A stretch of DNA of 57,181 nt from an uncultured Planctomycetaceae bacterium (GCA_964642165.1 CAZXOC010000002.1:21241-78421); one strand, 5' to 3'. Shown: positions 24,635-46,359, numbered from the stretch's first letter. Notes: generated by a model not told the origin, from the sequence alone. Made by a program: numbers and translations.

Positions 24635-25720
24635 TCAAGCACTCCCCAGGCGCTCGAGGGCCCATTGCGCCGGCTCGCGCAGCTCCGGTCGGCGCCGCTT
24701 CAGCTCGTGGAGGGCCGCGACGAGCCGTCCGGAGCCGTCCGTTCCGGCTGAATTGCCGGCCGCGATGGTGGCGTTGCGAAGCAGCATGTCGTACCGAACG
24801 CGTCGCGCGGCGGAGCCCGTCGTCGCGGCGTCCCAGTCGGCCTCGTTCCACGACAGGACCTCCACCAGGTCCGCGCCCCCCAGCGGCGGGCGAACGGCAC
24901 GAAGCTCGGCGTCGCCCGGCGGCGCGTCGCGGTTGTGCGGACAGGCCTCCTGGCAGGCGTCGCAGCCGACGAGCCGGCGCCCCATGCGGGGCCAGAGGTC
25001 GCGCTCGATGGGCCCGCGGTGCTCGACGGTGAGGTAGCTGATACAGCGCCGGGCGTCGAGGCCCCCCTCCGTCAGCGCCCCGGTCGGACACGCGCGAAGG
25101 CAGGCGCCGCAGTCGCTGCAGTCGTTCGCCAGGCCCCCGTCCGGGCACAGCGGCAGGTTGCAGACGATCTCGCAGAGGCAGACGTAGCTGCCCAGGCCGG
25201 GCACGACGAGGCAGCAGTTCCGGCCGATCCAGCCGACGCCGGCGGCCAGGGCGAGGCTGCGCTCCAGGACCGGCCCGGAGTCCACGAACGCCCGGCCGGC
25301 GAAGCCCGGCGCGATCTGCCGGATGCGGTCCATCAGGCGAACACACCGGCGCTTGAGGACCTTGTGGTAGTCGCGTCCCCGGGCGTACCGCGCGACGAGG
25401 CCGGGCGCCGAAGGGGCCGCCGCCCCGTCGTCCGGGGCGTAGCCGGCGGCGAGGCAGATCACGCTCCGGGCGCCGGGCACGAGGCGCTCCGGGCGGACGC
25501 GCTTGGCCACGTTGCGGGCCAGGTAGCCCATCGTCCCGTGCCGCCCGTCCGCCAGCCACTGCCGGAAGCGTTCCGCATCCGCCACGAGGCCGGCCGCGGC
25601 GATCCCCACGCGCGCAAAGCCAGCCTCCCGGCTGAGACGTTTGACGGTGGCGGTGAGCTCGTCGCGGGCGCGCATGTCAGCAGTGTAACCGCTCCAGACG
25701 GAATCGCGGAGCCGCGTCAC
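24635..25720 (-). CDS. queG: Epoxyqueuosine reductase
   Basis: ARYARGRDYH, FVDSGPVLER, GWIGRN, CSDCGACLRACPTGA, CISYLTVE, GCDACQEACP. Start is either the GTG at 25720 (GTGA overlap) or the ATG at 25675. Confidence 0.93.
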   Translation of the reverse strand: MTRLRDSVWSGYTADMRARDELTATVKRLSREAGFARVGIAAAGLVADAERFRQWLADGRHGTMGYLARNVAKRVRPERLVPGARSVICLAAGYAPDDGAAAPSAPGLVARYARGRDYHKVLKRRCVRLMDRIRQIAPGFAGRAFVDSGPVLERSLALAAGVGWIGRNCCLVVPGLGSYVCLCEIVCNLPLCPDGGLANDCSDCGACLRACPTGALTEGGLDARRCISYLTVEHRGPIERDLWPRMGRRLVGCDACQEACPHNRDAPPGDAELRAVRPPLGGADLVEVLSWNEADWDAATTGSAARRVRYDMLLRNATIAAGNSAGTDGSGRLVAALHELKRRRPELREPAQWALERLGSA

Positions 25721-26943
25721 TTGATGAGACGCGCGCCGGCGAGATCGACGTGGTCGGCGACGCCGAGCTGGTCGGTGCCGAAGTCGACGCGGATGAGGAG
25801 CCGCTCGACGCCCTTAACGTCGAGGCGGACGACCCGCGGGGGTGTCTTGCCGGTGAGACGGATCGGCTTGGCGAGCGACCGCCCGTCCCCGAGGAAGGTC
25901 AGCGTGGCATCGCCGTTCGGGCGAACGGCGTCGTCGATGCCGACGGTCGCCACGAACGCCGCGTACTGCCTGGCGAGGGAGTAGACCAGCTCGCAGTGGC
26001 TGTGCAGCCCCAGGCCCGTGCGGTACGTGCGCCCGCCCAGCCGCAGCGGCTTGCCCGAGACGGCGAGATCGACGCGGTGTTGGAACGTCGTCTGGAAGTA
26101 GCCGCGCTCCTTGACGGAAGAGGGCTTCAGCTCGGCGAGCGCCGTGACCTTGTCGGAGGTAATGCGGAGGGCGGCGGCCCGGGCGAGCGGGATCGACTGC
26201 TTCCCGACGGCCGGCGAGTCCAGCGTGAAGACGCCCTTGTCCAGCGCGAGCGACACGAAGTGCACGATCGAGCCGTCGCGTCCGAGGAGCAGGCCCCCCG
26301 TCGCGGGTGTTTTGGCCCGCACGGCCGCCAAGCGGACCATCGGGACGTTCGCCCGCTCGACCTTGCGCGACTGGTCGCGCCACCGGAACGTGACCTGCTT
26401 CGCGTCGATCGCCTCCAGGACGCCGTCGACGGCCAGGACTTCCCGGGCCTGCTTCCGCACGAGGAGCCGGTCCCCGACTGCGGCCGGCAGCTTCATCTCC
26501 CGGTAGCGCTTCTCCAGCTCGTCGGGGCTCTCGGCGAAATCGGGCAGGTAGATCACGCGTGCCAGGTCCATGGGCATTTCGCTCTGCCCGAGCAGGGCGC
26601 ATCGCGCGCGCAGCCGCCTCCCGCTGACCGCCAGCTCGTCCACGATGAGGCGATCGCCGAGGGCGGTCAGGACGGCCTTCTGGGCGAGCTTCGTCATCGG
26701 GTCTTCCTGCTCCTGCTCCTGCTCCGGAGAGAGCAGGAAGACCTCGACGACCCCGTCGAGCGCCAGGGAATGCTTCTGCCTGTCGCCCTGGAGGACGATC
26801 CGCCCGCCCGCGATGGAGAGGAGCTGTCCCGACACGATGCGCGCATCGGCCGTCTCGAGGCGCGCCTCGCCGGAGGCCGCGACCGCGAGCGAGAGCACCA
26901 GGCTGGCCGCTGTGATCGTCCGCACGCGTCGGCATCCTGCCAT
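25717..26943 (-). CDS. Secreted protein with C-terminal NPCBM/NEW2 domain
   Basis: Signal peptide from ATG 26943; GKPLRLGGRTYRTGLGLHS, ATVGIDD, LDVKGVERLLIRVDFG...ADHVDLAGARL. Confidence 0.85.
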   Translation of the reverse strand: MAGCRRVRTITAASLVLSLAVAASGEARLETADARIVSGQLLSIAGGRIVLQGDRQKHSLALDGVVEVFLLSPEQEQEQEDPMTKLAQKAVLTALGDRLIVDELAVSGRRLRARCALLGQSEMPMDLARVIYLPDFAESPDELEKRYREMKLPAAVGDRLLVRKQAREVLAVDGVLEAIDAKQVTFRWRDQSRKVERANVPMVRLAAVRAKTPATGGLLLGRDGSIVHFVSLALDKGVFTLDSPAVGKQSIPLARAAALRITSDKVTALAELKPSSVKERGYFQTTFQHRVDLAVSGKPLRLGGRTYRTGLGLHSHCELVYSLARQYAAFVATVGIDDAVRPNGDATLTFLGDGRSLAKPIRLTGKTPPRVVRLDVKGVERLLIRVDFGTDQLGVADHVDLAGARLIK

Positions 26944-27092
26944 GGATGAGCGCGGTTCCGGAGGCCCGCCCCGCCGCGTCCGGCCGGTCACCAGGGAGGC
27001 CGGCGCGGCTGCCGGTCTCGCGGCCGGCGGCGGGGCTGCACGGTCCGCGCCGTTGCGCGCCCCCCATCCCGGGAAACGGAGGCCGGCTTCGG

Positions 27093-28373
27093 TCACGGGT
27101 TCAGGCCGCCCTCCGAGATCTTGGTGCGGTACTTGCGGATGAGGTCTCGGTAGCGCTCGGACATGACCTTCTTGCGGAGCTGCTCGAGCTTCTGGCGCTC
27201 CCGCGGGGGCAGGTTGGCCCAGTCGCCGACCTCGGCCGTGTCGCGGATCTCGCTGCGCTTGGTCGGTCGCGCGACAGCCCCGGGCACCACGGCGCTGACG
27301 CGGGCGGGGTTGGACGGCTGGCGGGTCCCCTTCGGCGGGCCCTGCTTGCCGCCCTTGCCTTGGGCTTGCCCCTCGCCCGGGCGCTTCTGCTTCTTTCGGC
27401 CCTGGCCTTGGCCCTGGCAGCCGCACTGCTTCTCCTCCGCCGTCTTGATCAGGTCGGTGATGACCGCGACGATTCGATCCTCCTTGGCCTGCGTTACCTT
27501 GCCGCTGTCGACGGCGTCGAGGCGCTTCTTGACGTCGCCCATCATCTGCCCGGCCCAGCCGAGGGGATCCTGCGCGAACTCGGAGTACTCCTTGACGTTC
27601 TTGTCGATCTCCTTGATCGCCTCGGCATCGAGCGTCAGGCCGTAGTTCGTCACCGCGTAGTCGTACATCTCCATGGCGTAGGTGAAGCGGTTCATTTTCT
27701 CGTACGTCCGCGCCGACTCCAGCGCGGCGTCGGCCGCGAAACTGATCCGGTCCGCCATCACCACCAGGATCTTCTGGTAGGCGTCCACGGCGTCGTAGCC
27801 CTTGCCTTGGGCGGCCAGGGCGCGGGCGTACAGCGTGTAGCGCGCGGCGTTCAGGTACGTCGCCTCCTGGACGTTCAGGTCCTTGCTGATGGTCTTGGCG
27901 GCCTCGGCGTGCTTGCCGGCCTTCAGCAGCTCGTGCGCCTTGCGGAAGCGGTCGTTCACGCGTGCGAACGCGCGGATGATCCGGTCGATGTTGTCCCGCT
28001 GCGTGTTCTTCGGACTCGCCTGGAGGATCTTCGCCGCCGCGTCCACGTCCTTGTCATCGTTGAGGAGGTCTTCCCGCATCTCCTCGATGACCTGCTGGCG
28101 CTCCACCTTCAGCCGCGCCTGCACGGCGCCCTGGATGAGCTTCTGGACGTCCTCCGGGCTGAGGTCCTCCAGGAGCTTGTCCAAGTCGTCCTCGGCCGCG
28201 CCGGCGTCCGGAAGGCCGCCTCCCGCGGGCGGCGGCGTCGCGTCCGTCACAGCCGGCCGCTCCGGCTCGATGACGCCCTCGCCGCCCTGGCCCCAGGCGG
28301 GCCCGAGCCCGAAGGAGATCACCGCGATGCCGATGGCCGCCCACACGCCGGATGCCAGTCGTCTCGTTCTCAT
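27093..28373 (-). CDS. Secreted TPR-like / coiled-coil protein of the MoxR-vWA cluster
   Basis: Signal peptide from ATG 28373; helical repeats; Gly/Gln-rich linker; C-terminal WANLPPRERQ...SERYRDLIRKY. Confidence 0.8.
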   Translation of the reverse strand: MRTRRLASGVWAAIGIAVISFGLGPAWGQGGEGVIEPERPAVTDATPPPAGGGLPDAGAAEDDLDKLLEDLSPEDVQKLIQGAVQARLKVERQQVIEEMREDLLNDDKDVDAAAKILQASPKNTQRDNIDRIIRAFARVNDRFRKAHELLKAGKHAEAAKTISKDLNVQEATYLNAARYTLYARALAAQGKGYDAVDAYQKILVVMADRISFAADAALESARTYEKMNRFTYAMEMYDYAVTNYGLTLDAEAIKEIDKNVKEYSEFAQDPLGWAGQMMGDVKKRLDAVDSGKVTQAKEDRIVAVITDLIKTAEEKQCGCQGQGQGRKKQKRPGEGQAQGKGGKQGPPKGTRQPSNPARVSAVVPGAVARPTKRSEIRDTAEVGDWANLPPRERQKLEQLRKKVMSERYRDLIRKYRTKISEGGLNP

Positions 28374-28487
28374 GGTCTCACCACGCTCCTGTCTGCTCCC
28401 GCCCGGCGTCTCCGCCCGCCGTCGAGATGGGCCTGCTTCATCCCAGTGTATCACCATTCCCGGTCCGCGTCTGCTCCGGCGCGGCGG

Positions 28488-30779
28488 CTAGAACCCGTCG
28501 GCGGGCGGGCCGCGACGCGCGGGCGCCATCTTCTTGCTCAGCTTGTCCACCATCTTCTGCACCGCTTCCTGCCGGCGGCCGAGCTTCTTGTGCTCGCGCT
28601 CCGCCTGGTCGGCGGCGGGCTTGGGCTCGCCGACCAACTGCTTGTTGAGCGTTCGGGTCCGCCGGTTGATGGCAAGCTGGAGGGCCCGCACGAGCTTGAA
28701 CTCGGCGATGGGCGGGACGAGGGGCTGCTTGCCGCCGCCACCTCCGCGGCCGCGGCCCCCGCCGCCCTTGCGGCGTCGCTCGGCCAGCTCCTCGCGGATG
28801 GAGCTGATCATCTCGCGGAGGCTCTGCTCGATCTCCTTCTGGACGCCCTGGGTCAGCGCCCCGGCGTCCTCCTCGGCCAGGAGCTTCTGCACGTCCTGGA
28901 GGTCGCCGCGGACCTCCTTGAGCACCTCGGGGAAGACGATGGTGGTGTCCTCCTTGACGAGCATGTCGCGGACCTTCTTGACGTCCTCGGCGAGGCGCCC
29001 CTCACCGCGGGACAGCTCGCCGAGCTGGATCTGCTCGGCCCGCGCGTAGGGCGGATCCTCGTCCTTGCGCTTGCCGTGGGCGTCGCGCGTATCACCGGAG
29101 ATCTTCACCTGCCGGTCGAGGACCTTCTGGAGCATCTGGTCGATCTTGGCAAGCTGCTCGGCCTGGGCGAGGGCCTCCTCCTGCGCGACGGCGTCGGCCA
29201 ACTCGTCACGGGCCTGCTCGAGCTTGTCGATGGCCTTCTTCTGGTCGGCGTTCGCCCCGCCGCACTGCCCGCCGCCGAGCTTCTGCGAGGCGCTGCCCAT
29301 CGACTTCGACGCCGAGGCCACCGACTTCTGCCCCGGCGTCTCGCCTTCCTTCTTCATCTGGTCGCCGAGCTTCTCGCTCCGGTCGGCCAGCTCGCCCTGC
29401 TCGCTGGCCTGCTGCTTGGTCGGCTGGGCGGCCTTCTCCATCATCCGGCGGCGAAGCTTGGCAATCTCATACTTCTTGGCCTCCAGCTCCTTGAGGGCCT
29501 TGTCCTGCTGCTTGATGGCCTCGTCGCGCTCGCGGTCGCCCAGGTCCTGGGCGGCGTTTTTCATATGCTCGGCTGCCTTGTTCAGGTTGCCCGACTTCTG
29601 CCCGCTGGGCGAGCCGCCCTTCGAGGGCGAGCCGCCCTTCGAGCCCGAGCCCATGCCGGCCTCCTGAGCGAGGTCCGCCACGTCCTTCGCGAGCTGGGAG
29701 GTCTTGTCGGACAGGTCGCCCTGCTTGCCGGCAAGCTCCCCGGCCTTCTGGCCGCGGGTCAGCTTGGCCACGGCGTCGTCGATGGCCTTGCGGGCCTTTT
29801 CCAGGTCGGCGAGGGCCTGGTCCTGGGGTGTGGCGGCCTTGGCGGGATTGGACCTGCCGAGGGCCTTGGCGGCTTGTCGCATTTCCCCAGCGGCCGCCCC
29901 GGCGCTCTTCGACGCGCCGGCCAGACCGCGGGCGCCCTTGCTGCCTGCCCCGCCGGGGGAGAGCTTCGCGCCCAGCTTGGGGTCCTTGGCCAGGCCGCTG
30001 AGCCCCTCGGCCAGCCTGTCCGTGGAACCGGCCAGCAGCCGCTGGAGTTGGCCCGAGATCGGCAGCCGGTCGATCGGCGCGGTCTTCGTCACTTCGCGGA
30101 GCTTCGTCTGCTTGTCGATGATCGCGCGGATGTCCTTGCGCAGGCCCAACAGCTTCTGGAGGTGCGGATCGGGCGCAGGCAGCTTGGTGGTCTGGCTGCG
30201 GAGCTTCTTCTGCTCGGCGACGATATCGGCGAGCGTCTTGTCCAGGTTGCCCATCCGCCGCTGGAACTCGCTGGTGTTTGCGGCGAGGTTGCTCTGGCGC
30301 TCCAGGGGCCGCTGCTTGTCGAGCAGCTTGTCGATCTGGCCGAGAAACTCCCGCCACTTGCGGATGCGCTCGCGGCGCTCGTCGAGGTCCAGGATGCCCG
30401 TCCGGAGGGTCTGGAGGACCTTCCGGAGCTCGCCGATGACCTCGCTCTCCGTGCTGGCGGCGGCGGAGGCCAGGCCCTTGGCGAGGTACTCGGCGACCTT
30501 CTCCATGTCCTCGGCGATGAAGGAGCGTTGGGCCTGGCTGACGGCCTCGCGGAGGACCTTGGCCGTCTGGGGCTCGCTCTTCTCCAGCAGCTCGGCGATC
30601 TCGACCATCTTGGCGGTGAGCTGCTCGAACTCCTTCTTGTAGTACCGCTGGAGTCCGACCTCCGCGCGGTGCTTCATGTCGGGCTGGGTAGCGGGATCGT
30701 TGTCGTCGGCCGCCGTCAGCCCGGCGAGGAGCGCCGTCACCAACAGGCATCCCAGGATCGTTCCGCTCGTGCGTCTCAT
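28488..30779 (-). CDS. Secreted long coiled-coil protein (DUF4175-like)
   Basis: Signal peptide; A/Q/K/E-rich heptads; C-terminal PPIAEFKLVRALQLAINRRT. Confidence 0.82.
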   Translation of the reverse strand: MRRTSGTILGCLLVTALLAGLTAADDNDPATQPDMKHRAEVGLQRYYKKEFEQLTAKMVEIAELLEKSEPQTAKVLREAVSQAQRSFIAEDMEKVAEYLAKGLASAAASTESEVIGELRKVLQTLRTGILDLDERRERIRKWREFLGQIDKLLDKQRPLERQSNLAANTSEFQRRMGNLDKTLADIVAEQKKLRSQTTKLPAPDPHLQKLLGLRKDIRAIIDKQTKLREVTKTAPIDRLPISGQLQRLLAGSTDRLAEGLSGLAKDPKLGAKLSPGGAGSKGARGLAGASKSAGAAAGEMRQAAKALGRSNPAKAATPQDQALADLEKARKAIDDAVAKLTRGQKAGELAGKQGDLSDKTSQLAKDVADLAQEAGMGSGSKGGSPSKGGSPSGQKSGNLNKAAEHMKNAAQDLGDRERDEAIKQQDKALKELEAKKYEIAKLRRRMMEKAAQPTKQQASEQGELADRSEKLGDQMKKEGETPGQKSVASASKSMGSASQKLGGGQCGGANADQKKAIDKLEQARDELADAVAQEEALAQAEQLAKIDQMLQKVLDRQVKISGDTRDAHGKRKDEDPPYARAEQIQLGELSRGEGRLAEDVKKVRDMLVKEDTTIVFPEVLKEVRGDLQDVQKLLAEEDAGALTQGVQKEIEQSLREMISSIREELAERRRKGGGGRGRGGGGGKQPLVPPIAEFKLVRALQLAINRRTRTLNKQLVGEPKPAADQAEREHKKLGRRQEAVQKMVDKLSKKMAPARRGPPADGF
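29607..29642. repeat. Perfect in-frame 18-bp tandem duplication (encodes SKGGSP twice)
   Basis: GGGCGAGCCGCCCTTCGA at 29607-29624 and 29625-29642. Confidence 0.9.
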
Positions 30780-30858
30780 GGTGCGCTCCTTGTGCCCTCG
30801 GCGGGCGCCGCCGGCCTGCCGAGCGGGGGCGAAATCTGCTGCGCCGGCCAGGCCGCCG

Positions 30859-33078
30859 TCACTCCGGCTTCGCCGGGCGCGTCGTCGGATCGAGTACGCT
30901 CTTGACCTCGATCGCTTCCTTCTTCTTTATCGCATCGAGAAGCTGCTGCGACCACTTGATGATGATCTGGAGTTTGTTGGCCAGCTCCTGCTTGCTCTCC
31001 AGCTTGACCATTCGCTGGAGAATCTCGTTCATGGCATCGAAGATCCGCTCCTGCCCCTCCTCGATGACGCCGGCTTGGTCTCTCAATTCGCCGGCGTCCG
31101 TGACCTTCGCGGTGGCCTGGAGGGCGGCGGTGGTTCCACGGATCCGCTGCTGGAGCTCTACAAGGGGTTGGACGACGTCGGCGCGGATTTGTTCGCGCCC
31201 CGTGTCGGTTCCGATGCGGTTGTTCTTCATCTCTTCGAGGATGGCGGCGAGCCCGTCGGAGGCCTTGGCGACCTCGGCGCCGACGCTCTGCTGGAGGCCG
31301 CCCGACGACAGCAGCAGGCGCCGGACCTCCGCGCCGATGCCCCCCCCGGTGAGGATCGCCCCCGCCTCCCCGGTCTTGGCCCCGGCGGCTTTCTGAAGCC
31401 CGATCGCCTGGATGAACTCCAGGCGGATCTCCTTCTGGCGGCGCAGGAACTCCGCCATGAGGTCCTCGGTCTTGACGACGCTGAAGGCCAGCGCGCTGCT
31501 CTCGGCGACGTTGGGCCCGCCGTAGAGCTTCGGCAGCGTGTCGGTGGCCGTGGCGGCCACGTAAATCGTCGCCCCCGGCTTGAGCTTCAGCGGCTCGAGG
31601 TCGCAGTCCTGGGCGTGGTCGAACTCCCGCCCGACGTCCGGAGGCAGCGAGACCGCCTGGGCATTGGCGTCGGTCGACGTGCCTCCCTCTCGCACGCCGA
31701 TGGCCACCGCCGCCAGACCGTGGTCGTCCCGAACCCGAAGGTGCAGCGGGATGACCGCTCGCGGCGAGATCCTCACCCCGATGCCGCTCTTCTTGATGTC
31801 CAGCGTGGGACGGTGGTCCGGCTGGACCTGGACCACGTACTTGGCGCCGCGGCGGCTGGTGTGTCCGTCCCGGTCGGTCAGGGCAAACCGCAGCACCTTG
31901 GTCACGGGCTCGTTGCGCCCGGTGATCTCGAACTCGCCGACGTACTGGCGAGGCAGGGGGACCTTCTTCCCGTCGACGACGGCCGTCTGCTGGTGCATCT
32001 GGGCGGCTTTCCGCCCGTCGAGCAGGATCGCGGCGGCGGACAGGTCCTTGTTCGCCTTGGCCTGCACGGTGACCTTGGCGCCGAGGGGCACGCCCAGCGC
32101 CCCGGTGCCGCCGGGCAGGAGGATCGGGGTGAGGCGGCGCATGTAGCTGGGGCAGCGCACCACGAAGCGGATGTTGAGCAGCGCCGGCGGGTCGATGAGG
32201 CGCACCTTGTGCCGGCGGCGCTTGTCGCGATAGTCGTCGCCGCCCACGACGTAGAGCTCGAACTCCTCGGACACGGCCGGGAAGACCTTGACGAACTTGC
32301 GCCGGCTGTCGCGGTCGGGCTCGACGGCCTCCTCGGTCCATCCCAGCGCCGCGTAGCGGGCGTGGAACGTGACGTGGTCGGGGGTCACGCGGCTGCGCGG
32401 CTCGACCTCGGCGATCACCGTCAGGTCGTCGCCGCGAAGCACGGTGAAGTCGGGCGGGTCGCTTCGGACGGTGAGGTAGGTTTCCTGCGGCCAGGGGGTG
32501 TCCGCGAACAGGACGTTGCGCTGGAACCACTTTTCGAGCAGGTCGCTCTGCCAGACGCCGAAGCCGGCCAGCAGGCCCAGTCCGCAGGCGGCGAGCGCCC
32601 AGCTTCGGAAGATTCCGCGGCGCTCGACGACCTCGCGGAACGGCAGGGGCGAGGCCAGGGCGTCGGCCTCTTCGGCCATCCGCCGGATCATGCCCAGCGA
32701 GATGCCGAGGGCCTCGCTGTCGCTTCGCCGGCTGAACTGGATCGCCCCGACGAGCCGGTCGCCCAACTGCTGGAACCGGCGCTCGACCAGCAGCGCCAGG
32801 TCGGTGGCGTCCATCGAGACGCGGAGCGGCGCGAGCAGCTCCCGCCAGACGACCACGCCCACGCCGACCAGCGCCAAGGCCATGATCACGCCTCGCAGGT
32901 CGCGTTCCAGGCGGAAGAGGTAGTCGAACCCCAGCGTCACGAACACCAGCGCCACCAGGGCGAGGCTCAGCCAGGCCAGGCCCTCCACGAGCAGCCGCAC
33001 CGACAGCGCGCGGCGCAGGCCGCCCAGTTTCGCCCGGATCGCCGGCGTGAGAAGGTCGCGTTGCGTTACGTCGTCCAT
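30859..33078 (-). CDS. DUF4175-like membrane protein (two N-terminal TM helices, Ig-like domains, coiled coil)
   Basis: ATG at 33078; LVERRFQQLGDRLVGAIQF; VLRGDDLTV; QPDHRPTLDI. Confidence 0.82.
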   Translation of the reverse strand: MDDVTQRDLLTPAIRAKLGGLRRALSVRLLVEGLAWLSLALVALVFVTLGFDYLFRLERDLRGVIMALALVGVGVVVWRELLAPLRVSMDATDLALLVERRFQQLGDRLVGAIQFSRRSDSEALGISLGMIRRMAEEADALASPLPFREVVERRGIFRSWALAACGLGLLAGFGVWQSDLLEKWFQRNVLFADTPWPQETYLTVRSDPPDFTVLRGDDLTVIAEVEPRSRVTPDHVTFHARYAALGWTEEAVEPDRDSRRKFVKVFPAVSEEFELYVVGGDDYRDKRRRHKVRLIDPPALLNIRFVVRCPSYMRRLTPILLPGGTGALGVPLGAKVTVQAKANKDLSAAAILLDGRKAAQMHQQTAVVDGKKVPLPRQYVGEFEITGRNEPVTKVLRFALTDRDGHTSRRGAKYVVQVQPDHRPTLDIKKSGIGVRISPRAVIPLHLRVRDDHGLAAVAIGVREGGTSTDANAQAVSLPPDVGREFDHAQDCDLEPLKLKPGATIYVAATATDTLPKLYGGPNVAESSALAFSVVKTEDLMAEFLRRQKEIRLEFIQAIGLQKAAGAKTGEAGAILTGGGIGAEVRRLLLSSGGLQQSVGAEVAKASDGLAAILEEMKNNRIGTDTGREQIRADVVQPLVELQQRIRGTTAALQATAKVTDAGELRDQAGVIEEGQERIFDAMNEILQRMVKLESKQELANKLQIIIKWSQQLLDAIKKKEAIEVKSVLDPTTRPAKPE

Positions 33079-33095
33079 GTCTTTCTCACCGTGTC

Positions 33096-35681: not shown

Positions 35682-35691
35682 GCCACGCTGT

Positions 35692-38019: not shown

Positions 38020-38070
38020 CGTCGATCTCCTACCTTGGCCCGTTCATTGATGCGTGGCTGTCACCGCATC

Positions 38071-38134
38071 CGTCGCGGCGGACAGGGCCCGCGCGGGTCG
38101 TCGCGGGGACGACCGGCCCGTGGGGCCGTCGCGG
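38071..38134. repeat. Three CGTCGCGG cores at exact 28-nt period in an intra-operon gap
   Basis: Copies start at 38071, 38099 and 38127; units 1 and 2 also share GGCCCG. Confidence 0.65.
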
Positions 38135-38185
38135 GTGTCGTCGTCTTCGTGGTCCTCGTGATCGCATGGTGGCGTCTCGATCGGG

Positions 38186-39124
38186 TCACCGCTTGCTCCC
38201 CGCCTTGCGCGTGGCGGCGGCGCGGGCGGAGAGGAACGCCAGCAGCGCCGCGTCCAGGTGGTCGGCGGTGGAGATCAGCTTGTAATCGACGCGGCTGGCG
38301 ATGCACTTGCGCTTCACGTCCGTGCAGAAGCGGTCCACCGCCTGGAGGTATCCCTCGCGCAGCGCCCGCGGCTCGATCATGATGTTGCCCGTCGCCTCCA
38401 GCCCGCGGAACATCGTGTTGCCCTGGAACGGGAACGTCAGCTCGTCCTCGTCCATCACGTGCAGGACGATCACCTCGTGGTCGTAATGGCGGAAGTGCTG
38501 GAGGCCCCGGATCACGCCGTCCGTGTCCACGAACAGGTCGCTCACCAGGCACACCAGCCCGCGGCGGGGAATCTTCTCCGCCACGGAGTGGCAGATCGGC
38601 TCCAGCGACGTCTTGGCCTTCGGCTCGATCACGTCCATCGCGTGCACGAGCGACTTGATCTGGTTGGGGTTCGCCGAGGCCGGCACGTACGTCCGCAGGT
38701 CCTCGTCGAAGACCGCCAGGCCGACCGCGTCCTGCTGCTGGAGCAGGAGGAAGCCGAGGGAAGCCGCCACGGCCACCGCGTACTCGTACTTCGACATGCG
38801 CCCGGAGCGCCCCGTGCCGTACAGCATCGACTCGCTGCCGTCCACCAGGAAGAGGGCCTTGAGGTTCGTCTCCTCCTCGTACTGCTTGATGTAGTACCGG
38901 TCGGTGCGCCCGAGGACCTTCCAGTCGATGTGCTTGATGTCGTCCCCGGGCGCATACTCGCGGTGCGAGGCGAACTCGACGCTGAACCCGTAGAACGGGC
39001 TGCGGTGCAGGCCCGAGATGAACCCCTCCACGACCAGGCGGGCCTGGAGGTCCAGGCGCGTGATCTTCGAGAGGACCTTGGGGTCCAGGTACTTCCTCAG
39101 TTCCTCAACGGTGGTCTTGGCCAT
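38186..39124 (-). CDS. DUF58 family protein (MoxR-associated, vWA-like)
   Basis: LHRSPFYGFSVEFASHREYAPGDDIKHIDWK; LVDGSESM; VSDL. Confidence 0.93.
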   Translation of the reverse strand: MAKTTVEELRKYLDPKVLSKITRLDLQARLVVEGFISGLHRSPFYGFSVEFASHREYAPGDDIKHIDWKVLGRTDRYYIKQYEEETNLKALFLVDGSESMLYGTGRSGRMSKYEYAVAVAASLGFLLLQQQDAVGLAVFDEDLRTYVPASANPNQIKSLVHAMDVIEPKAKTSLEPICHSVAEKIPRRGLVCLVSDLFVDTDGVIRGLQHFRHYDHEVIVLHVMDEDELTFPFQGNTMFRGLEATGNIMIEPRALREGYLQAVDRFCTDVKRKCIASRVDYKLISTADHLDAALLAFLSARAAATRKAGSKR

Positions 39125-39218
39125 GCGCTCGTCTGTCCGGAGTGTCGTGTCCGTGCTCTTCGAGGCAACTCACCCCCGGCCACGCCGGGCCGGGGCTCTA
39201 GGGCGGCGGGCGGACGCC

Positions 39219-40310
39219 CTACGGTTCGACCGCCTTGGCGGTGGCCGGGTTCGTGGCGATGGCGCTCTCCTGGGCGGGGATGATCTCCAGGAGCCGGTCC
39301 ACGATCCGGTCGACGGTCATGCCCTCGGCGTCGGCGTTGAAGTTCGTCACGATGCGGTGGCGCAGGACCGGCCTGGCGACCGCCTGGATGTCCTCGGTGG
39401 ACACGTGCACGCGCCCGTGCAGGACGGCGCGGACCTTGCCGCCGAGGGTCAGGTACTGGCAGGCCCTCGGCCCGGCGCCCCAACTGACGTAGTCCCGGAC
39501 GACCGGCGGCGGGGCCGTGTCCGTGTCGATCACGCGCGTCGCCCGCACGAGCCGCATCGCGTACTGGATGACGTGGTCCGACACCGGCACGCGACGGATG
39601 ATCTCCTGGAGCTGGATGATCTCCTCGCCCGTCAGGACGTGCGACAACTGCACGTCCTGGATCGCCGTCGTCAGCCGCACGATGTCGAATTCCTCGTCCC
39701 AGTTGGGGTACTTCACGAAGATCTTGAACATGAACCGGTCCTGCTGGGCCTCCGGCAGCGGGTAGGTGCCCTCCTGCTCGATGGGGTTCTGCGTCGCCAG
39801 GACGAAGAAGGGGTCCTTCATCGGCATGCGCTTCCCGCCGGCCGTCACCTGACGCTCCTGCATCGCCTCCAGCAGCGCCGCCTGCGTCTTCGGCGGCGTC
39901 CGGTTGATCTCGTCGGCCAGGATGACGTTGTTGAAGATCGGCCCGTGGAGGAACCGGAAGTCCCGCGTCCCCGTCGAGCGGTCCTCCTGGATGACCTCCG
40001 TGCCGGTAATGTCCGAGGGCATCAGGTCCGGCGTGAACTGGATCCGCGCGAAGTCCAGCTCCAGGCACTGGGCCAGCGAGGAGACCATCAGCGTCTTGGC
40101 CAGGCCCGGCACGCCCTCCAGGATGGCGTGCCCCCGCGCGAAGATGCACATCAGCAGCTCCTCGAGCACCGCCTCCTGCCCTACGATCGCCCTGGCCATC
40201 TCCCGGCAGATGGTCTGGTAGGCCTCGGAGAGGCGTTCGGCCGCCTGGATGTCATCCCGGTTGAGTTCCTTGTCGTCCGCCCTTGGTTCGTTCGCTTCCG
40301 CTTCAGTCAC
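39219..40310 (-). CDS. MoxR family AAA+ ATPase
   Basis: Walker [24 protein letters not shown], Walker [33 protein letters not shown] at 40310 with a GAGGAG RBS. Confidence 0.96.
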
Positions 40311-40481
40311 GTCGCTCTCCTCTTGGCTGGCCGCGGCCGGCACTCGGTTGTCGGCTTCTCATTCTCCGCTGCGGGCGATTCGCCTTCCGCGGGGTCTTGC
40401 CGATTTGCCTTCCCCCCGTTCGCCGGGGCAGGGGCGATCTCGGGAACGGCTGGGCGTCGGCAGAAGGCGGATCGCCACTGG

Positions 40482-41624
40482 CTACTTCTGGCAGATCGGC
40501 AGGTAATTGTACGGGAGCTGGAGGATGATGGTGGCGAGGGCCGTGCCGTACGTCGTGCCGACGCTGTCGCCGTTCCAGCTTCCGTCGGGGCTCTGCAATT
40601 GCAGCAGTCGGTCGCGAATCTGCGGGTAGTAGGTTTTCCAGTCCTGGCCGCCGCGCTGGTACCACGCCTGCGCCAGGTAAAAGTGGGTGTAGAAGTAATG
40701 CCCGCCCCAGGCGCCGCCGCCGCTGACGTTGACGCGCCCGCGGACGTAGCGGACGAGCTTCTCGACCATTTCGGCCTCGGCGCCCTTGCCGCCGGTCTTC
40801 CGGTCGTAGATGCCGGCGGCATAGAAGCAGGTGATGGCCGCCGCGGAGATCGCCGGGCGCGACGAGCCCCGGCTTCGCGCCGAGTAACAGATGCCGCCGT
40901 CGCCCTGCTGGCAGTACTTCAGGTAGGCCACCGCGCGGTCGATCGTGCTCTTCGGCACCTTGATGCCCACGTTGCGGCAGGCCCGCAGCGCCTGGAGCTG
41001 CGTGACCGTCACCGACCCCTCGTCCCCCCGGCTGGTCGGCGTGTAGATCCACCCGCCGGCGTGCGCGTGCTGGGCGCCCAGGTCGGACTGCGCCTTGGCC
41101 GTCAGCCCCACCGCCTTGGTGAGCACGCCCTGGAGGTCCTTTTCGTACTCGCGGCTGATCTCCGTGCCGTAGCACTGGGCGAGGAACAGCATGGAGAAGC
41201 CGTGGCCGTACATGCTCCGGCTCTCCGAGCCCGGGCCGCCGATGAGCCCGTCCCCGTGGCTCTTGGCGACGCGCAGCAGGTAGCTCATCGCGCGGGTGAC
41301 GTTGCGGCAGTACGGGCCCGTCTCGGGCGTCGAGCCGTTGCCCATCATCGCCACGCCGGCCAGCGCGGTCATGGCGGCCGGATACGTCCCGTACCCGCCG
41401 CTGTTGAGCCAGCTCCCGTCGGGGCGCTGCGTCTTGGCCAGGTAGTTCAGTCCGCGGTCGATCGCCTTGACGGTCTTTCGCGTGACCATCTCCGGCAGCA
41501 TCGCGCTGGGCGCATCGGCCCGCGCCGCCGGGACGATCGCCTGCCCGCAGGCCGCCGCAGCCGCCGCAAGGACCAGCCACGGCCGCCGCCTGGGGGCGCG
41601 TCGCCGCATCTCAACGCTCGCCAT
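40482..41624 (-). CDS. Secreted prenyltransferase/squalene-oxidase-repeat (alpha/alpha toroid) protein
   Basis: Signal peptide; QRPDGSW and QSPDGSW QW-type repeats; GGWIY; AVAYLKYCQQGDGGICY. Confidence 0.88.
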   Translation of the reverse strand: MASVEMRRRAPRRRPWLVLAAAAAACGQAIVPAARADAPSAMLPEMVTRKTVKAIDRGLNYLAKTQRPDGSWLNSGGYGTYPAAMTALAGVAMMGNGSTPETGPYCRNVTRAMSYLLRVAKSHGDGLIGGPGSESRSMYGHGFSMLFLAQCYGTEISREYEKDLQGVLTKAVGLTAKAQSDLGAQHAHAGGWIYTPTSRGDEGSVTVTQLQALRACRNVGIKVPKSTIDRAVAYLKYCQQGDGGICYSARSRGSSRPAISAAAITCFYAAGIYDRKTGGKGAEAEMVEKLVRYVRGRVNVSGGGAWGGHYFYTHFYLAQAWYQRGGQDWKTYYPQIRDRLLQLQSPDGSWNGDSVGTTYGTALATIILQLPYNYLPICQK

Positions 41625-44600
41625 AGATTATCACTCCTTTCGAGGTCTCCGCGCACAGGCGCCCGTTGGTGAGGACCGGCGGGCCCGTGCCCTGGCGCCG
41701 GCGGCTCTCGTCCGGGGCGGGCGCGCCGCCGCGGAGATCGATCTTCTGCGCCGCCTTGCCCGTCTGCGAGTGCAGCACGTACGCGTAGTACGGGAAGGCC
41801 GCCTGGTAGTGCCTCGCCGTGACGACCACGTGATCCCTGCCCAGGACGATCGGCGGCATGCTCTGGTAGTACCAGTTCTTGTGCTCGTCGAAGTCGACGC
41901 TCCAGCGGTGCTTCTCGTCGGAGACGGTGAACTTCTGGATGTTCAACCCCCGCACGCTGCTCAGGCGCCCGTAGATCGCCTTCCGGCGGCCGGAAAAGCT
42001 GGGAGCACAAAGGACGTAGAGACCGTCGTCCTGGAAGCGGGCATCGAACGGGATGGCCGCCGCCCCGTGGACGGGCCGGGCCTGAAGCGTCGCCAGCTTG
42101 CCGCCCCCCAGCACGGAGAGGACCTCGATTCGCCCGGAAGTGTTCTGCGGGGACACCGCGATCTGCTCGGCGGAGATCGCCAGGATCGCCGGGTACTTCG
42201 CCGCGTTGTGCTGCTGCCGCCAGAGGGGCTTGTCGAGCTTGCCCAGTTCCCGCACCGTCAGCTCGCCGTTGACGATCATCGCCAGCAGGCCGTCCGGGGT
42301 CACCTCGCACTGGGTCCACTGGCTCGCCGAACCGTCGGGCGGCCACCTGCCGACGACCCGCCCGCCCTTGGCGAGGCTGAAGCAGGTCACCCTCTTGCCG
42401 CTGTCGTGCTGGAAGACGACCATGTCGCCGACGATCCGCGGCGGGCCGCTCGGGCAGCGGTTGCCGCCCACGAGGTTGCCCTGCCAGGACATCTCGCCGG
42501 TGGCGATGTCCAGGCAACTGACCTTCCCGCTGCGGTCGGCCACCACCAGCACGCCGGAGCCGACGCCCATCGTGTAGAACGACGCGATGCCGATCTTGGC
42601 CATCTGCCGGTCCCAGACGACCTTGGCGGAAACCAGGTCCAACCCGCGGATGGACTTGCGGTCGGCCACCGCCAGCACCTTGCCGTCCCGGCTGACGCCG
42701 CCGACGAGGCGCATGCCCGGCGGGTAGTGGGCGTACTTCTTGGCGTCGTCCTTGTCCACGCTGGCCAGGCCCTTCCATTCGGCCAGGGCCTTGGCCTCGC
42801 TGTCCGCGGCGGTGTCCAGCAGGTACGCGTCGCCGTCCTTGATGATGGCGATCTTCTCGCCGAGGCGGATGGGTCGCAGCTCCTGGTCCCGCAGCACGCA
42901 GACGTGCTCGCCCTTGACCTGGAAGACCTCCGCCAGCGGCGGGCGGACCGTCGAGACCATCCGCATCGGGCGCGACGAGTTGGCCAACTTGCCCCCCTCG
43001 ATCAGCTTCAGCACGTCTCGCAGCTTGCCCCGCACGTCCGCGAAGGCCACCTCCGTCTCGCCGTCCAGGTCCGCCAGGACCTCGCACTCCTTCTGCGCCG
43101 AGGTCTTCCAGCCGCCTCGCGAGTAGATCGTCGCCAGGGCGACACTCGCCGAAACGCGCAGCGGGCTGTCCTTCGTCCGCGCGACGCGGTACAGGTGGCG
43201 CCGCGCCTCGGCCAGGTCGTCGTCGGCGCTGGCCTTGTCCGCTTGGGCGCGCCGGTAGAAGAGCTCCGCCGCCTCGAACAACGCGTCGTCGGCCCACTGG
43301 CTGTTCGGCCAGCGCTTCTCGACGTCCAGGACCCGGTCGACCTCCCCGGCCGCACGCGCCTCGTCGAAGGCCCGCTTGGCCTCCGCGTCGAACTTCGCGT
43401 AACACTCGTGCCCGTGCTTCGCCAGCAGGTCCCTGACGTACGCCCGCACCAGCTTGTCGCCACGGACGGTCCGCCGGCGCGGCCCGGAGCGGACCGCATC
43501 GCCGGCCTCCGGCCCGATCACAATGTCGTAGAGCTCTTCCTCGCCGTACTCCTCGGCGACCTGCTGGGCCAGCTCCACCGCCGCGGTGTATTCCCCGACC
43601 CGCTCGTGGTACTTCGCCAGCCGCAGCTTCAGGTGGGCCTTGTCCAGCGTGGTGGTCGCGTACGCCTCGGCGTGGAGGAACATCTCGTGCATCTGCGCGT
43701 CGCCGGCCGCGTGGTTCCCCAAGGCCACGTAGGTCATGTACAGCAGCGGGGGAAGCTGCGCGCCCGTCTGGGTGTCGCCCTGGGCCTTGGTCAGCGCCTC
43801 GCAGGCCTTGAAGTCCTCCAGGGCCTTGGCGTACCGCTTGGCGTCGTAGGCGAGCTGCGCCCGCTGCTTCAGCAGCGGCGGGCGCTGCGGCGCCGGGGTC
43901 GACTCGATCCGGCGGGTCAGCTCCTCCCGCGCCGAGTCGTAGCCGAAGTACGTGCAGACGCCCAGCATGCTGGCGGAGATGAGCTTGCCGTTGGCGCTGA
44001 CCAGGTTGCCCAGGAAGCCGTCCGCCGACGCCAGCCCCAGCGGGCTCGTGCCGTAGGTCTTCAGGTCCATCGACTCGACGCGCCCCATCGCGCTGGCCAG
44101 GACCTCGTGCGACGTGACCGCCGGGCGCCCGCTGATTCCCACGTCCTCCGAGCCGCGGTTCAGCTCCGCGCCGTCGATGACGCGGCGGACGATCAGCCCC
44201 GGGCCGCTCATCAGGACGCGATCGGCGTCGATGGCGCTGAGGTCCATCTGGCTGCGCCGGTTGCCCGCCCACCGCAGTTCGCCGGTGGCGGCGTCCAGCC
44301 CCAGCAGCTTCTCGCTGTCGGCGGGAAGGCACACCACGTTCCCGCGCGACACGATGATCGGGTTGCCCGGCGGATGGACGCCGAGGCGGCCCGGGTAGCG
44401 GGACGATACCGACGAGATGCTTCCGGGGCGGTTGACCACGCTCGTGTACTGGTAGGCCCACAGCGGCTCGCCGGTCTCTTCCTCGAAGCCCGCCACGGCG
44501 CCGCTGTTCGTCGTCACGTACACGCGCCCGTCGGCCACCGCCGGCGGGCTGCCGACGCTCAGCCGCGGGTCGGCGCCGATGGCGTAGCTGCTCCGTCGAC

Positions 44601-46266
44601 CCACCGCCGGCGCCTGCGCCACGGGCGCCTGCCAGATCATCGCGCCCTTGTTCCGCGCGTCCAGACAGACCACGTGGTACCGCTGGAGGTAGAGCATCAT
44701 GACGTACAGGCGTCCGGCCCGGTAGGTCGGCGCCGAGAGGAACATGCCGTTGCGGATCACCTCGTGGTCGCCCAGCCCGCGCCCGACACGCCAGACCAGT
44801 CGCCCGTCGGCGCTCAGCGACAGCGCCGCCAGCCTCGAGCCGTCGTCCAGGCCCTTCATGTTGGGGTTGCGCCGCAACACGTACCCCAGCGAGTCCCCCG
44901 CCGGGAGGAAGTCGTACACCGTGAAGGCCATTCCCCCGCCGACGGTCAGGGCATACCGCCCGCTGTCGCCGACGTACTTGTAGCCGCCGGAGGAGTAGTA
45001 CCCCGTGTTGGCGATCGGCCCGATCTGCCGGACCATCGGCAGCGCGAGGCTCTTCCACCTCGTCTCGCCGGTCAGCAGGTCGAAGCCCGCGGTGCTGTCA
45101 TCCAGGCGCACGATCACCTGGTCGCCCCAGACGACCGGATGGACCAGCCCCGGCAGCACCGTCTCGCCCTGGGAGCGGCTGGAAACCGTCCGGCGCAGGA
45201 TCAGGTGCCCTCGACTCAGGCGGACGCTGCGGCGGACGTTGCGGCTGGCGTAGCGGTTGTACTTGTGGTCGGACAGGTACATGGTCAGCCCGGCCTTGAG
45301 GCGCGGCAGCAGGTCCTCGCCGGGGGAGACCCTCTCGCCCGCCTGGCGCCAGCGCGGCGCCAGGACGACGTCGCAGCCGCTCATGGCGCTCAGCCCGCTC
45401 GGGATGCCCCCCAGCCCGGGCCAGCCCGTCTTGACCGCCAACGGCGCGTCCACGGTGACCACCGGCATCCGCCAGACGCGCCGGAGGAACTCCGCGAGGC
45501 TCTGCGTCTTACCGCCGAGGACGGCGGATGCGTCGGGGAAGTCTTTCCGCAACTGCTCGGCCGCACGCCCGGCGGCCTCGCTCTCCCCGCCCAGGTGGCA
45601 GGCCGCGGCCACCTTCGCCAGCAGCGCCACGCGCTGCTCGCCGTCGGGCGCCAGCGGCAGCAGCCGCCACCAGCAGGACGCCGCCTGCGAGAACCGCGCC
45701 CGGTCGAAGTACAGCGCCCCCAGCGTCTCGAGGGCCTTCGGCCCGTACGACGTGTGCAGGTACCGCTCGGAGAGCCGGCGGAGATACTGCTCCGGGCGAT
45801 CGGAGGCCAGGGCCTCCTCGTAGAGCCGCTCGGCCTGCGGGTCGTACAGGGCGCGGTAGAGCTTCAGCCCCTTCGGGCCCATCCGCCCCAGCAGGTTGTT
45901 GGCCTTGCGGCGCATCGACACGAACCGGTTCGCCCCCTCCGAGTAGAAGCCGCTGTCCTCCCGCTGGATCAGGGCCTGGAGGATCTGGATGGCCTGGTCG
46001 TACTTCTTGTCCTTCTCGATCAGCCGCTTGGCCTCGTGCAGATAGCCGCCCAGTTCGTCGTCCACGTGGACCAGCGGAGGCGTTCCCGGGCTCGCGCCCG
46101 GGCTCGTCCGGCTGTTGACGGGCGGCAGGACCGCGGCCACGTTCGCCCGCCGCACCAGCTCGCCGAACGCGCCGGTGGCCAGCACGACGAGGGCGCCGAG
46201 CAGGACCCCCGCCGCGGCCCACGGCCGGCCTCGGCCACCATGTTGAGAATGCCCCGGTTCGTCCAT
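41611..46266 (-). CDS. Large secreted TPR plus PQQ-type beta-propeller protein (about 1550 aa)
   Basis: Signal peptide from ATG 46266; repeated propeller motifs (GFDLLTGETRW, LGLDAATGELRW, CLDIATGEMSW) flanking TPR-like helices. Confidence 0.88.
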   Translation of the reverse strand: MDEPGHSQHGGRGRPWAAAGVLLGALVVLATGAFGELVRRANVAAVLPPVNSRTSPGASPGTPPLVHVDDELGGYLHEAKRLIEKDKKYDQAIQILQALIQREDSGFYSEGANRFVSMRRKANNLLGRMGPKGLKLYRALYDPQAERLYEEALASDRPEQYLRRLSERYLHTSYGPKALETLGALYFDRARFSQAASCWWRLLPLAPDGEQRVALLAKVAAACHLGGESEAAGRAAEQLRKDFPDASAVLGGKTQSLAEFLRRVWRMPVVTVDAPLAVKTGWPGLGGIPSGLSAMSGCDVVLAPRWRQAGERVSPGEDLLPRLKAGLTMYLSDHKYNRYASRNVRRSVRLSRGHLILRRTVSSRSQGETVLPGLVHPVVWGDQVIVRLDDSTAGFDLLTGETRWKSLALPMVRQIGPIANTGYYSSGGYKYVGDSGRYALTVGGGMAFTVYDFLPAGDSLGYVLRRNPNMKGLDDGSRLAALSLSADGRLVWRVGRGLGDHEVIRNGMFLSAPTYRAGRLYVMMLYLQRYHVVCLDARNKGAMIWQAPVAQAPAVGRRSSYAIGADPRLSVGSPPAVADGRVYVTTNSGAVAGFEEETGEPLWAYQYTSVVNRPGSISSVSSRYPGRLGVHPPGNPIIVSRGNVVCLPADSEKLLGLDAATGELRWAGNRRSQMDLSAIDADRVLMSGPGLIVRRVIDGAELNRGSEDVGISGRPAVTSHEVLASAMGRVESMDLKTYGTSPLGLASADGFLGNLVSANGKLISASMLGVCTYFGYDSAREELTRRIESTPAPQRPPLLKQRAQLAYDAKRYAKALEDFKACEALTKAQGDTQTGAQLPPLLYMTYVALGNHAAGDAQMHEMFLHAEAYATTTLDKAHLKLRLAKYHERVGEYTAAVELAQQVAEEYGEEELYDIVIGPEAGDAVRSGPRRRTVRGDKLVRAYVRDLLAKHGHECYAKFDAEAKRAFDEARAAGEVDRVLDVEKRWPNSQWADDALFEAAELFYRRAQADKASADDDLAEARRHLYRVARTKDSPLRVSASVALATIYSRGGWKTSAQKECEVLADLDGETEVAFADVRGKLRDVLKLIEGGKLANSSRPMRMVSTVRPPLAEVFQVKGEHVCVLRDQELRPIRLGEKIAIIKDGDAYLLDTAADSEAKALAEWKGLASVDKDDAKKYAHYPPGMRLVGGVSRDGKVLAVADRKSIRGLDLVSAKVVWDRQMAKIGIASFYTMGVGSGVLVVADRSGKVSCLDIATGEMSWQGNLVGGNRCPSGPPRIVGDMVVFQHDSGKRVTCFSLAKGGRVVGRWPPDGSASQWTQCEVTPDGLLAMIVNGELTVRELGKLDKPLWRQQHNAAKYPAILAISAEQIAVSPQNTSGRIEVLSVLGGGKLATLQARPVHGAAAIPFDARFQDDGLYVLCAPSFSGRRKAIYGRLSSVRGLNIQKFTVSDEKHRWSVDFDEHKNWYYQSMPPIVLGRDHVVVTARHYQAAFPYYAYVLHSQTGKAAQKIDLRGGAPAPDESRRRQGTGPPVLTNGRLCAETSKGVIIYGER

Positions 46267-46353: not shown

Positions 46354-46359
46354 ATTATA
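46354..46359 (-). promoter_or_regulatory. Perfect -10 element upstream of the envelope cluster
   Basis: Minus strand TATAAT about 90 nt before the ATG; no good -35 seen. Confidence 0.4.

Follow-up and report, generated by a model that had tools for sequence, protein, structure and literature searches.

Results

A ten-gene envelope cluster is conserved across Planctomycetota

A 57,181-nucleotide stretch of DNA from an uncultured Planctomycetaceae bacterium (GCA_964642165.1 CAZXOC010000002.1:21241-78421), hereafter called the window, carries on its minus strand a cluster of ten genes, g1 to g10, that is a real, conserved extension of a MoxR-vWA system of the Bat, Cmd and Mxa kind. Its core consists of a MoxR ATPase (g3), a DUF58 protein (g4), two membrane vWA proteins (g5 and g6) and a DUF4175 protein divided over two genes (g7 and g8). 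A propeller protein (g1), a toroid protein (g2), a helical protein (g9) and an NPCBM protein (g10) accompany this core. A first-pass annotation of the same DNA had proposed that these genes form one multi-component envelope system, and the results below bear this out: the ten genes are conserved together and their topology fits.

Reading frames in the window, which is about 70% G+C, were picked by GC content at the third codon position (GC3), together with a listing of open reading frames (ORFs). Ten minus-strand ORFs occupy positions 25717-46266, with intergenic gaps of -14 to 166 nt, and the stop codon of g10 and the start codon of g1 coincide exactly with the ends given earlier for ten co-oriented genes with these domains. 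A hydropathy scan revealed a hydrophobic N-terminus or a transmembrane segment on every protein except g3 and g4, in agreement with the earlier statement that only MoxR and DUF58 lack export or membrane signals. Co-orientation is not distinctive of the cluster, because the same-strand run goes past both ends through housekeeping genes such as nadC, a birA-like gene, queG and xseA, among others. It is conservation, not orientation, that lifts the cluster above chance.

An orthologue of g6 was present in all 24 of the 24 same-family genomes. The order from g1 to g10 was intact in about 20 relatives belonging to two families of the order, at 25-60% identity, and the lowest identity of g1 among these relatives was 25-33%. 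Alignment of toroid orthologues and paralogues gave more than 585 toroid relatives in species-representative genomes, and the best 80 of these >585 loci, all from Planctomycetota, were surveyed for layout. The flank was too short in 10 loci; among the 70 informative ones, 67 were linked to BatA/g6/g7 (BatA/vWA/DUF4175) genes. The prevailing arrangement, layout A (propeller-toroid-MoxR-DUF58-BatA-g6-g7-g8), was found in 44 loci, and the same order without MoxR-DUF58, layout A', in 14. MoxR lay 3 kb after the toroid in one further locus of layout A, and eight loci had layout B (DUF58-BatA-g6-fused DUF4175-small secreted protein-toroid), in six of which the NPCBM gene directly follows the toroid. 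Three loci had no partner despite at least 5 kb on both sides. Conservation of gene order had been set beforehand as one of the tests by which the proposed system could be refuted; the order held, both in the close relatives and in the linkage of the toroid loci.

The extent of the conserved unit was judged from five distant type-A/A' genomes. In all five the cluster ends with the NPCBM gene, 12-16 kb downstream, queG lies on other contigs, and the gene for a 720-aa membrane protein that stands upstream of g1 in the window was not found. The conserved unit therefore runs from g1 to g10, because distant genomes keep the terminal NPCBM gene but not the adjacent queG or 720-aa gene. The latter is kept before g1 only in closer Phycisphaerae relatives.

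Two ancient versions of the cluster

A maximum-likelihood tree of 61 g6-family proteins separated A plus A' from B with 99% support. The A/A' clade held 48 rows, including the window, and the B clade comprised Tautonia, Pirellulales, class-level relatives and two contigs of the window's own genome, C36 and C135. As judged from this sequence tree, the system falls into two ancient versions, type A with the toroid upstream and type B with the toroid downstream. Layout A' formed a single clade inside A (96% support), and this points to a single loss of the local MoxR-DUF58 pair. The best MoxR orthologue of the A' genomes lies in a second, shorter cluster of the order MoxR-DUF58-BatA-g6-like-...-propeller-like (L129-L131, on G043:C18, G044:C34 and G045:C10), and the propeller-like gene follows MoxR-DUF58-BatA-g6-like in two of these three loci.

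Layout B was found in Tautonia, Bythopirellula, Pirellulales and on C36 and C135, and in its rearranged order it still joins the toroid and the small secreted coiled-coil protein to BatA-g6-DUF4175. In the cultured strain Tautonia sociabilis GM2012 the type-B cluster occupies about 42-55 kb of NZ_RYZH01000010.1; its genes are 3-4 nt apart, and the last of them encodes a signal peptide followed by NPCBM (90.5 bits). Besides the window cluster, its genome holds at least two clusters of the type-B version. The one on C135 ends with the toroid, a 731-aa signal-peptide protein with a weak PQQ_2 match, and a protein in which MFS and spermidine synthase are fused (NF037959, 177 bits). A further DUF4175 gene of the same genome lies on contig C569; the Pfam scan of this genome for DUF4175 overlooked the window's own g8, and the DUF4175 counts are lower bounds.

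Table 1. Genes and sites of the cluster and its flanks in the window, and related clusters elsewhere in the same genome. TM, transmembrane.
Feature	Position	Strand	Description
g1	41611..46266	-	1551 aa; N-terminal TM anchor, helical (TPR-like) region, BamB-like (PQQ_2) beta-propellers
g2	40482..41624	-	Secreted single-domain (alpha/alpha)6 toroid; signal peptide; conserved C-terminal tail ...LPIxQ[RK]
g3	39219..40343	-	MoxR-class AAA+ ATPase; AAA_3 211.9 bits, AAA_lid_2; start codon uncertain
g4	38186..39124	-	DUF58 (162.3 bits), cytoplasmic vWA-like; MIDAS DGSES; no TM segment or signal peptide
g5	35692..38019	-	BatA_N TM hairpin, periplasmic vWA (predicted), beta-sandwich, GATase1-like domain, C-terminal TM; TTG start
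g6	33096..35681	-	Second membrane vWA protein, g5-type architecture; two TM helices and vWA
g7	30859..33078	-	N-terminal (membrane) half of split DUF4175; TM hairpin at 30-48 and 61-79
g8	28488..30779	-	Secreted coiled-coil C-terminal half of split DUF4175; signal peptide
g9	27093..28373	-	Secreted helical protein; signal peptide; marginal family matches only
g10	25717..26943	-	Secreted; four beta-rich repeats and C-terminal NPCBM/CBM51 domain; signal peptide
queG	24635-25720	-	Epoxyqueuosine reductase; downstream flank; 4-nt overlap with g10 stop; xseA next
720-aa protein	46520-48682	-	Polytopic membrane protein; upstream flank; about 14 TM segments and soluble C-terminal domain
TATAAT	46354..46359	-	Candidate -10 element, 88 nt upstream of g1 start, within a 253-nt gap
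Type-B-like cluster	contig C36, ~9.9-22.3 kb		Own genome; HEAT-repeat gene after toroid
Type-B-like cluster	contig C135, 1-18.6 kb		Own genome

The MoxR-DUF58 pair and the two membrane vWA proteins

The Walker A (GVPGLAKT) and Walker B (ILADEINR) motifs of g3, as read from the sequence, are both intact, and g4 follows directly after a gap of 94 nt. The g5 protein matched BatA (PF07584, 58.6 bits), TIGR02226 (69.6 bits) and VWA_2, and its transmembrane segments lie at residues 4-22, 57-75 and 740-758. No family in Pfam or NCBIfam matched g6, which is a paralogue of g5 across 669 columns (hhalign 98.6%). The AlphaFold2 model of g6 (pLDDT 84.4) consists of a transmembrane hairpin, a vWA domain at 85-280, a beta-sandwich, an alpha/beta domain at 412-680, another beta-sandwich and a C-terminal transmembrane helix. 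Profile matches of g6 were to integrin I-domains, BatB 3ibs (2e-4) and the A2M MG domain, and to the GATase1-like structures 3soz, 3rht and 2gk3 (E 1e-4 to 1.5e-3). A Foldseek search with the whole model returned only beta-sandwich and multi-domain noise (TM-score about 0.1), and the GATase-like call therefore depends on the profile matches. Together with the predicted alpha/beta domain, these matches uphold the earlier description of g6 as vWA plus GATase-like. The GATase1-like domain of g5 and g6 has no conserved Cys.

The DxSxS motif of the metal ion-dependent adhesion site (MIDAS), which had been reported for all three vWA-type proteins, was indeed present in each, as DGSES in g4, DDSYS in g5 and DDSRS in g6. 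It was retained in 55 of 55 relatives for g4, in 64 of 66 for g5 and in at least 56 of 61 for g6, where D104, S106, S108 and D249 are invariant in 31 sequences. The MIDAS domains of g5 and g6 are predicted to face the periplasm; a periplasmic location of the BatA-type vWA domain has been demonstrated experimentally for Borrelia BB0173 (PMC5700661). Because of this predicted location, MoxR would be unable to contact the MIDAS of g5 or g6 directly. Of the ATP-coupled MoxR-vWA machine proposed in the first-pass annotation, the compartments stand, with MoxR and DUF58 cytoplasmic and the rest in the membrane or exported; a coupling of ATP hydrolysis through the membrane vWA proteins is conjectural.

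A split DUF4175 protein and four exported partners

No family in Pfam or NCBIfam matched g7, but it aligned with residues 1-657 of the fused DUF4175 protein of Tautonia (E 3e-39), and its paralogue on contig C36 matched positions 167-322 of Pfam DUF4175. The g8 protein matched the same family directly (44.3 bits, profile positions 662-775 of 825) and aligned with the C-terminal parts of the fused proteins, which are 1170-1600 aa long. Since g7 aligns to the N-terminal half and g8 to the C-terminal part, g7 and g8 together make up one split DUF4175. They had been annotated as a DUF4175-like membrane protein and a separate secreted coiled coil; the membrane and secreted features hold, but the DUF4175 label belongs to both genes. 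Heptad periodicity in g8 was seen as a hydrophobic autocorrelation of 0.28 at lag 7, against -0.02 in the toroid used as control.

The g9 protein, previously called a secreted TPR/coiled coil, is secreted and helical, but its TPR matches were marginal, with best E values of only 0.004 to 0.5. An orthologue occupies the same position in 12 relatives, and g9 bears a weak similarity to a small secreted protein of Tautonia and Bythopirellula whose gene stands between those for DUF4175 and the toroid. For g10, the NPCBM assignment was confirmed over the whole module (PF08305, 94.8 bits, positions 4-136 of 137), with profile matches to the CBM51 structures 2vmg and 2vmh at 5e-14 and to 7js4 at 5e-39. 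Its residues from about 30 to 260, ahead of CBM51, form roughly four degenerate beta-rich repeats of 45-60 aa, and the Tautonia homologue gave a weak match to BPL_C, an SH3-like barrel, in that region.

The giant g1 matched Pfam PQQ_2 in two stretches (108.5 bits) and the NCBIfam BamB models in part, and it has a transmembrane segment at residues 17-35. It stayed below the cut-offs of the quinoprotein models PF01011 (24.2 versus 26.7) and TIGR03075 (23.5 versus 480). By these sequence scores its propellers are BamB-like, and g1 is no quinoprotein. Of the earlier label, TPR/PQQ propeller, the membrane anchor, the helical (TPR-like) region and the propellers are retained, and the pyrroloquinoline quinone sense is dropped. 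The 28 orthologues of g1 are 1460-1733 aa long, share 25-61% identity and can be aligned over all but roughly the first 40 residues. Of the 67 loci with enough flank, 43 have a g1-like gene upstream of the toroid.

The toroid protein g2 matched SQHop_cyclase_C (40.7 bits) and Prenyltrans, and contains QW-type repeats that are closest by sequence to squalene-hopene cyclase (6.6e-16 in a profile search). Its AlphaFold2 model (pLDDT 82.8) is a single (alpha/alpha)6 toroid of 12 helices, and the top Foldseek matches were 8pak, AprG, MstE and GH76 (TM-scores 0.56-0.62). A 14-sequence alignment revealed no DxDD, invariant Asp, Cys or Zn-type His triad in g2, and GDEGS or DADIS stands in place of the motif. 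Among the acidic residues of the toroid alignment only E201 is conserved (D in paralogues), and there is no invariant Asp/Glu pair. The family terminates exactly at the tail QLPYxYLPIxQ[RK], which in g2 is encoded at 40482-40520. The strict motif was present in 63 of 95 members, and the shown tails that fail it deviate by one to three residues. The last barrel helix does not include this tail, which is a possible docking peptide. At E<=1e-30 the toroid family amounts to 5,812 clusters. Some toroid copies are fused into proteins of 1100-2279 aa, and others stand in tandem duplication (L075 and L077-L079).

Flanking genes and signals

Upstream of the cluster, the gene for the 720-aa protein, the BirA-like gene and nadC are all on the cluster strand. 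The 720-aa protein had no family match in Pfam or NCBIfam, and no relationship was detected between it and the MFS/spermidine-synthase protein at the end of the paralogous C135 cluster; not found in the five distant type-A genomes, it was left out of the system. On the downstream side, at least seven same-family genomes keep queG after g10. Being unlinked in the five distant genomes, queG was not counted as part of the cluster and is probably a co-transcribed hitch-hiker rather than a component.

The TATAAT at 46354-46359 is the sole copy in the 57-kb window on either strand, and the two closest relatives also have this hexamer ahead of g1, at -95 in one and at -152 in the other. No -35 match accompanied it. 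It may be the promoter of the operon, and we treat it as a lead only. Scans of 24000-52500 for sigma-70 promoters and intrinsic terminators gave no signal exceeding that of shuffled sequences. Rfam gave no match in the window, and PADLOC none among the ten cluster proteins.

Discussion

Relation to known systems

In the window cluster, the DUF4175-type membrane protein (g7 and g8) is encoded after the BatA_N-type protein. The last genes of the rhizobial cmdA-D operon are of the BatA_N type and the DUF4175/TIGR02302 type, which would make that operon the best match to g3-g8. The operon (RL3499-RL3502 of Rhizobium leguminosarum), described as broadly conserved, is likewise a MoxR-DUF58-membrane protein module, and its loss reportedly leads to envelope and morphology defects (Vanderlinde 2011, cited in PMC5700661). 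It has four genes, whereas the planctomycete cluster has two vWA paralogues, a split DUF4175 and four extra exported proteins.

The Bat operon (Bacteroides aerotolerance; bb0170-bb0176 of Borrelia and bat of Leptospira) shares with the cluster the MoxR AAA_3 protein, DUF58, a BatA_N double-transmembrane vWA protein and a second membrane vWA protein with a MIDAS. In Bat systems, too, the vWA domain faces the periplasm (PMC5700661), and there are helical or TPR-like partners. There are also differences. Searches of the ten proteins against Pfam and NCBIfam gave no BatD or SH3 family match, and TPR in g9 is marginal; g5 and g6 reach about 800 aa, with a beta-sandwich, a GATase1-like domain and a C-terminal transmembrane helix; and the cluster adds DUF4175, the toroid, the CBM51 protein and the 1551-aa propeller giant. 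In the MxaRSACKL system of methylotrophs (PMC12276312), MoxR, DUF58-type and vWA proteins act on a periplasmic beta-propeller from their own cluster, as MoxR, DUF58 and two vWA proteins might here. Here, however, the propeller is BamB-like, no MxaF, MxaI or MxaJ genes are present, and no Mxa-specific family models matched. The beta-propeller MoxR-vWA ternary systems (PMC7159879) likewise combine MoxR and vWA with a membrane-anchored TPR/propeller protein, which g1 may resemble, and occur in planctomycetes, but the cluster differs from them in a vWA unfused to the propeller, a canonical P-loop, the apparent lack of a hypervariable region and a vWA that is predicted to be periplasmic. As for g2, it resembles the single-domain class II terpene-cyclase toroids (8pak and MstE 6sbb) and the prenyltransferase beta/A2M-TED proteins in its (alpha/alpha)6 fold and QW-like repeats. 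It departs from them in being exported, in having neither DxDD nor an invariant Asp, and in its family-specific tail.

The literature covers Bat, Cmd, Mxa and the ternary systems described by the Aravind laboratory (PMC5700661, PMC12276312, PMC7159879). Our searches on MoxR/DUF58/BatA, on DUF4175 and on planctomycete MoxR proteins found no paper on a planctomycete cluster extended by toroid, NPCBM and DUF4175.

A possible periplasmic scaffold

We propose tentatively, as a reading that is possible but falls a little short of probable, that an envelope system found throughout Planctomycetota has grown around the MoxR-DUF58-BatA/vWA-DUF4175 module, that the locus represents its type A in Phycisphaerae, and that its product is a scaffold. 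The composition and co-inheritance of the cluster and the conservation of its MIDAS are observed, and its topology is directly predicted. On this proposal, g5, g6 and g7 would form a platform in the inner membrane, whose periplasmic MIDAS sites would bind acidic or C-terminal peptides of exported partners in a metal-dependent manner. The partners g1, g2, g9 and g10 would be mounted on the DUF4175 stalk, with g7 as its membrane base and g8 as a long secreted coiled coil. The result would be a periplasmic scaffold, anchored in the inner membrane and gripping envelope glycan through CBM51, that supports envelope integrity. MoxR-DUF58 would serve from the cytoplasmic side as a chaperone for assembly or remodelling, its likeliest handle being the conserved cytoplasmic loop of the BatA_N hairpin, and it might also be supplied from another locus. 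MoxR-vWA pairs are known as chaperone and co-chaperone acting through MIDAS-peptide binding (PMC7159879, PMC3495828). The first-pass annotation had placed the complex at the cell surface, and this part is unsupported: none of the ten proteins carries an outer-membrane or surface signal.

A more specific version, which we consider unlikely, is a previously undescribed periplasmic machine, spread over all Planctomycetota, in which the BatA-type MIDAS captures the toroid tail (...LPIxQR-COOH) and similar peptides of propeller and lectin and mounts these proteins on the DUF4175 coiled-coil stalk. Such a machine would come in two old paralogous forms, A and B, and a single genome would carry as many as three or four copies.

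Several observations weigh against the scaffold. Structures that match the fold of the toroid include enzymes (class II terpene cyclases, AprG and GH76) as well as binders. The toroid is missing from the cluster of one same-family relative, G021 (L033, G021:C21), where g1 directly precedes MoxR, and three of the 70 informative toroid homologues are unlinked. The coiled-coil call for g8 and the TPR calls are based on crude evidence. Furthermore, layout A' keeps toroid-BatA-vWA-DUF4175-NPCBM without a local MoxR or DUF58; since its envelope genes manage without the pair, the coupling to ATP may be loose or indirect.

Alternative explanations

Two alternatives to the scaffold have a similarly low probability. 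One is a periplasmic chaperone for metal insertion or maturation, like MxaRSACKL: MoxR/DUF58 and the two membrane vWA proteins would supply the g1 propellers, and perhaps the CBM51 of g10, with Ca2+ or a similar divalent cation, the other genes being clients or adaptors with no scaffold. Among Bat-type modules, an activity has been demonstrated only for Mxa, where methanol dehydrogenase, a periplasmic PQQ propeller enzyme, fails to incorporate Ca2+ unless MxaR, S, A, C, K and L are all present (PMC12276312). A PQQ_2-type propeller giant heads the present cluster and recurs upstream of the toroid, and the MIDAS is strictly conserved. Yet g1 scores as BamB-like and below the quinoprotein cut-offs, no Mxa-specific NCBIfam model matched, some layout-B clusters such as that of Tautonia have no propeller gene, and DUF4175, toroid and g9 are left unexplained. 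We consider metal insertion improbable. The toroid is central to a glycan-processing or glycan-handling machine, in which it would be an (alpha/alpha)6 enzyme (glycosidase, epimerase or AprG-like) acting on envelope or imported polysaccharide that the CBM51 protein holds, with vWA and DUF4175 proteins positioning the enzyme. Its fold matches GH76 mannanases, AprG with bound N-acetylglucosamine and N-acyl-glucosamine epimerases (TM-scores 0.55-0.62), CBM51 in solved structures binds galactose-type and blood-group glycans, and sulfatases and a PL2-like lyase are also encoded in the window. By sequence, however, the toroid is nearest to terpene-cyclase/prenyltransferase repeats and not to GH families, it has E201 as its sole conserved acidic position in place of an Asp/Glu pair, and the conserved set has no transporter, TonB-dependent receptor or recognised hydrolase. 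We give the glycan machine a low probability.

The remaining two are weaker still. That the Bat-like core g3-g8 functions alone, with g1, g2, g9 and g10 as neighbours retained by slow rearrangement, is largely refuted and very improbable. The retention of queG after g10 within the family warns that family-level synteny is no proof, and co-orientation reaches far past the cluster; at greater distance, though, queG and the 720-aa gene are lost while NPCBM, toroid and propeller are retained, and toroid, NPCBM and the small secreted coiled-coil protein stay attached in layout B and in the two paralogous clusters of the own genome. We regard as hardly credible a biological-conflict system of the MoxR-vWA beta-propeller ternary type (Kaur et al. 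2020), with g1 as its membrane-spanning TPR/propeller third component. That class has been reported from planctomycetes and verrucomicrobia with a third component that has a transmembrane segment, TPRs and a propeller (PMC7159879), and g3 scores above the PF20030 bpMoxR cut-off with 38 bits. The AAA_3 score of g3 is 212 bits, however, and its P-loop is the canonical GVPGLAKT and not GxxxTAKS. The defining vWA-propeller fusion is absent, since neither the g6 model nor g5 includes a propeller; g1 is conserved in length and alignable in its orthologues and does not appear hypervariable; PADLOC found no match; and the cluster, which lies among housekeeping genes, is stable in content and carries no effector domains.

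Significance

Among bacterial gene clusters of unexplained mechanism, MoxR-DUF58-BatA/vWA operons belong to the most widespread, and Mxa is the only one whose outcome is established. The cluster analysed here ties such a core to four exported partners, namely a toroid, a CBM51 lectin, a propeller giant and a helical protein, and it has done so through an ancient duplication and changes of gene order. These partners are concrete candidates for clients or subunits, and they bring in a toroid family that is very large, is uncharacterised and has a tail that may serve in docking. Tautonia sociabilis GM2012 offers a cultured carrier of the type-B cluster. If the periplasmic machine that captures the toroid tail exists, then no client of a Bat/Cmd-type MoxR system would have been identified before toroid, propeller and lectin, and the complex could belong to the structure of the envelope that makes planctomycetes unusual.

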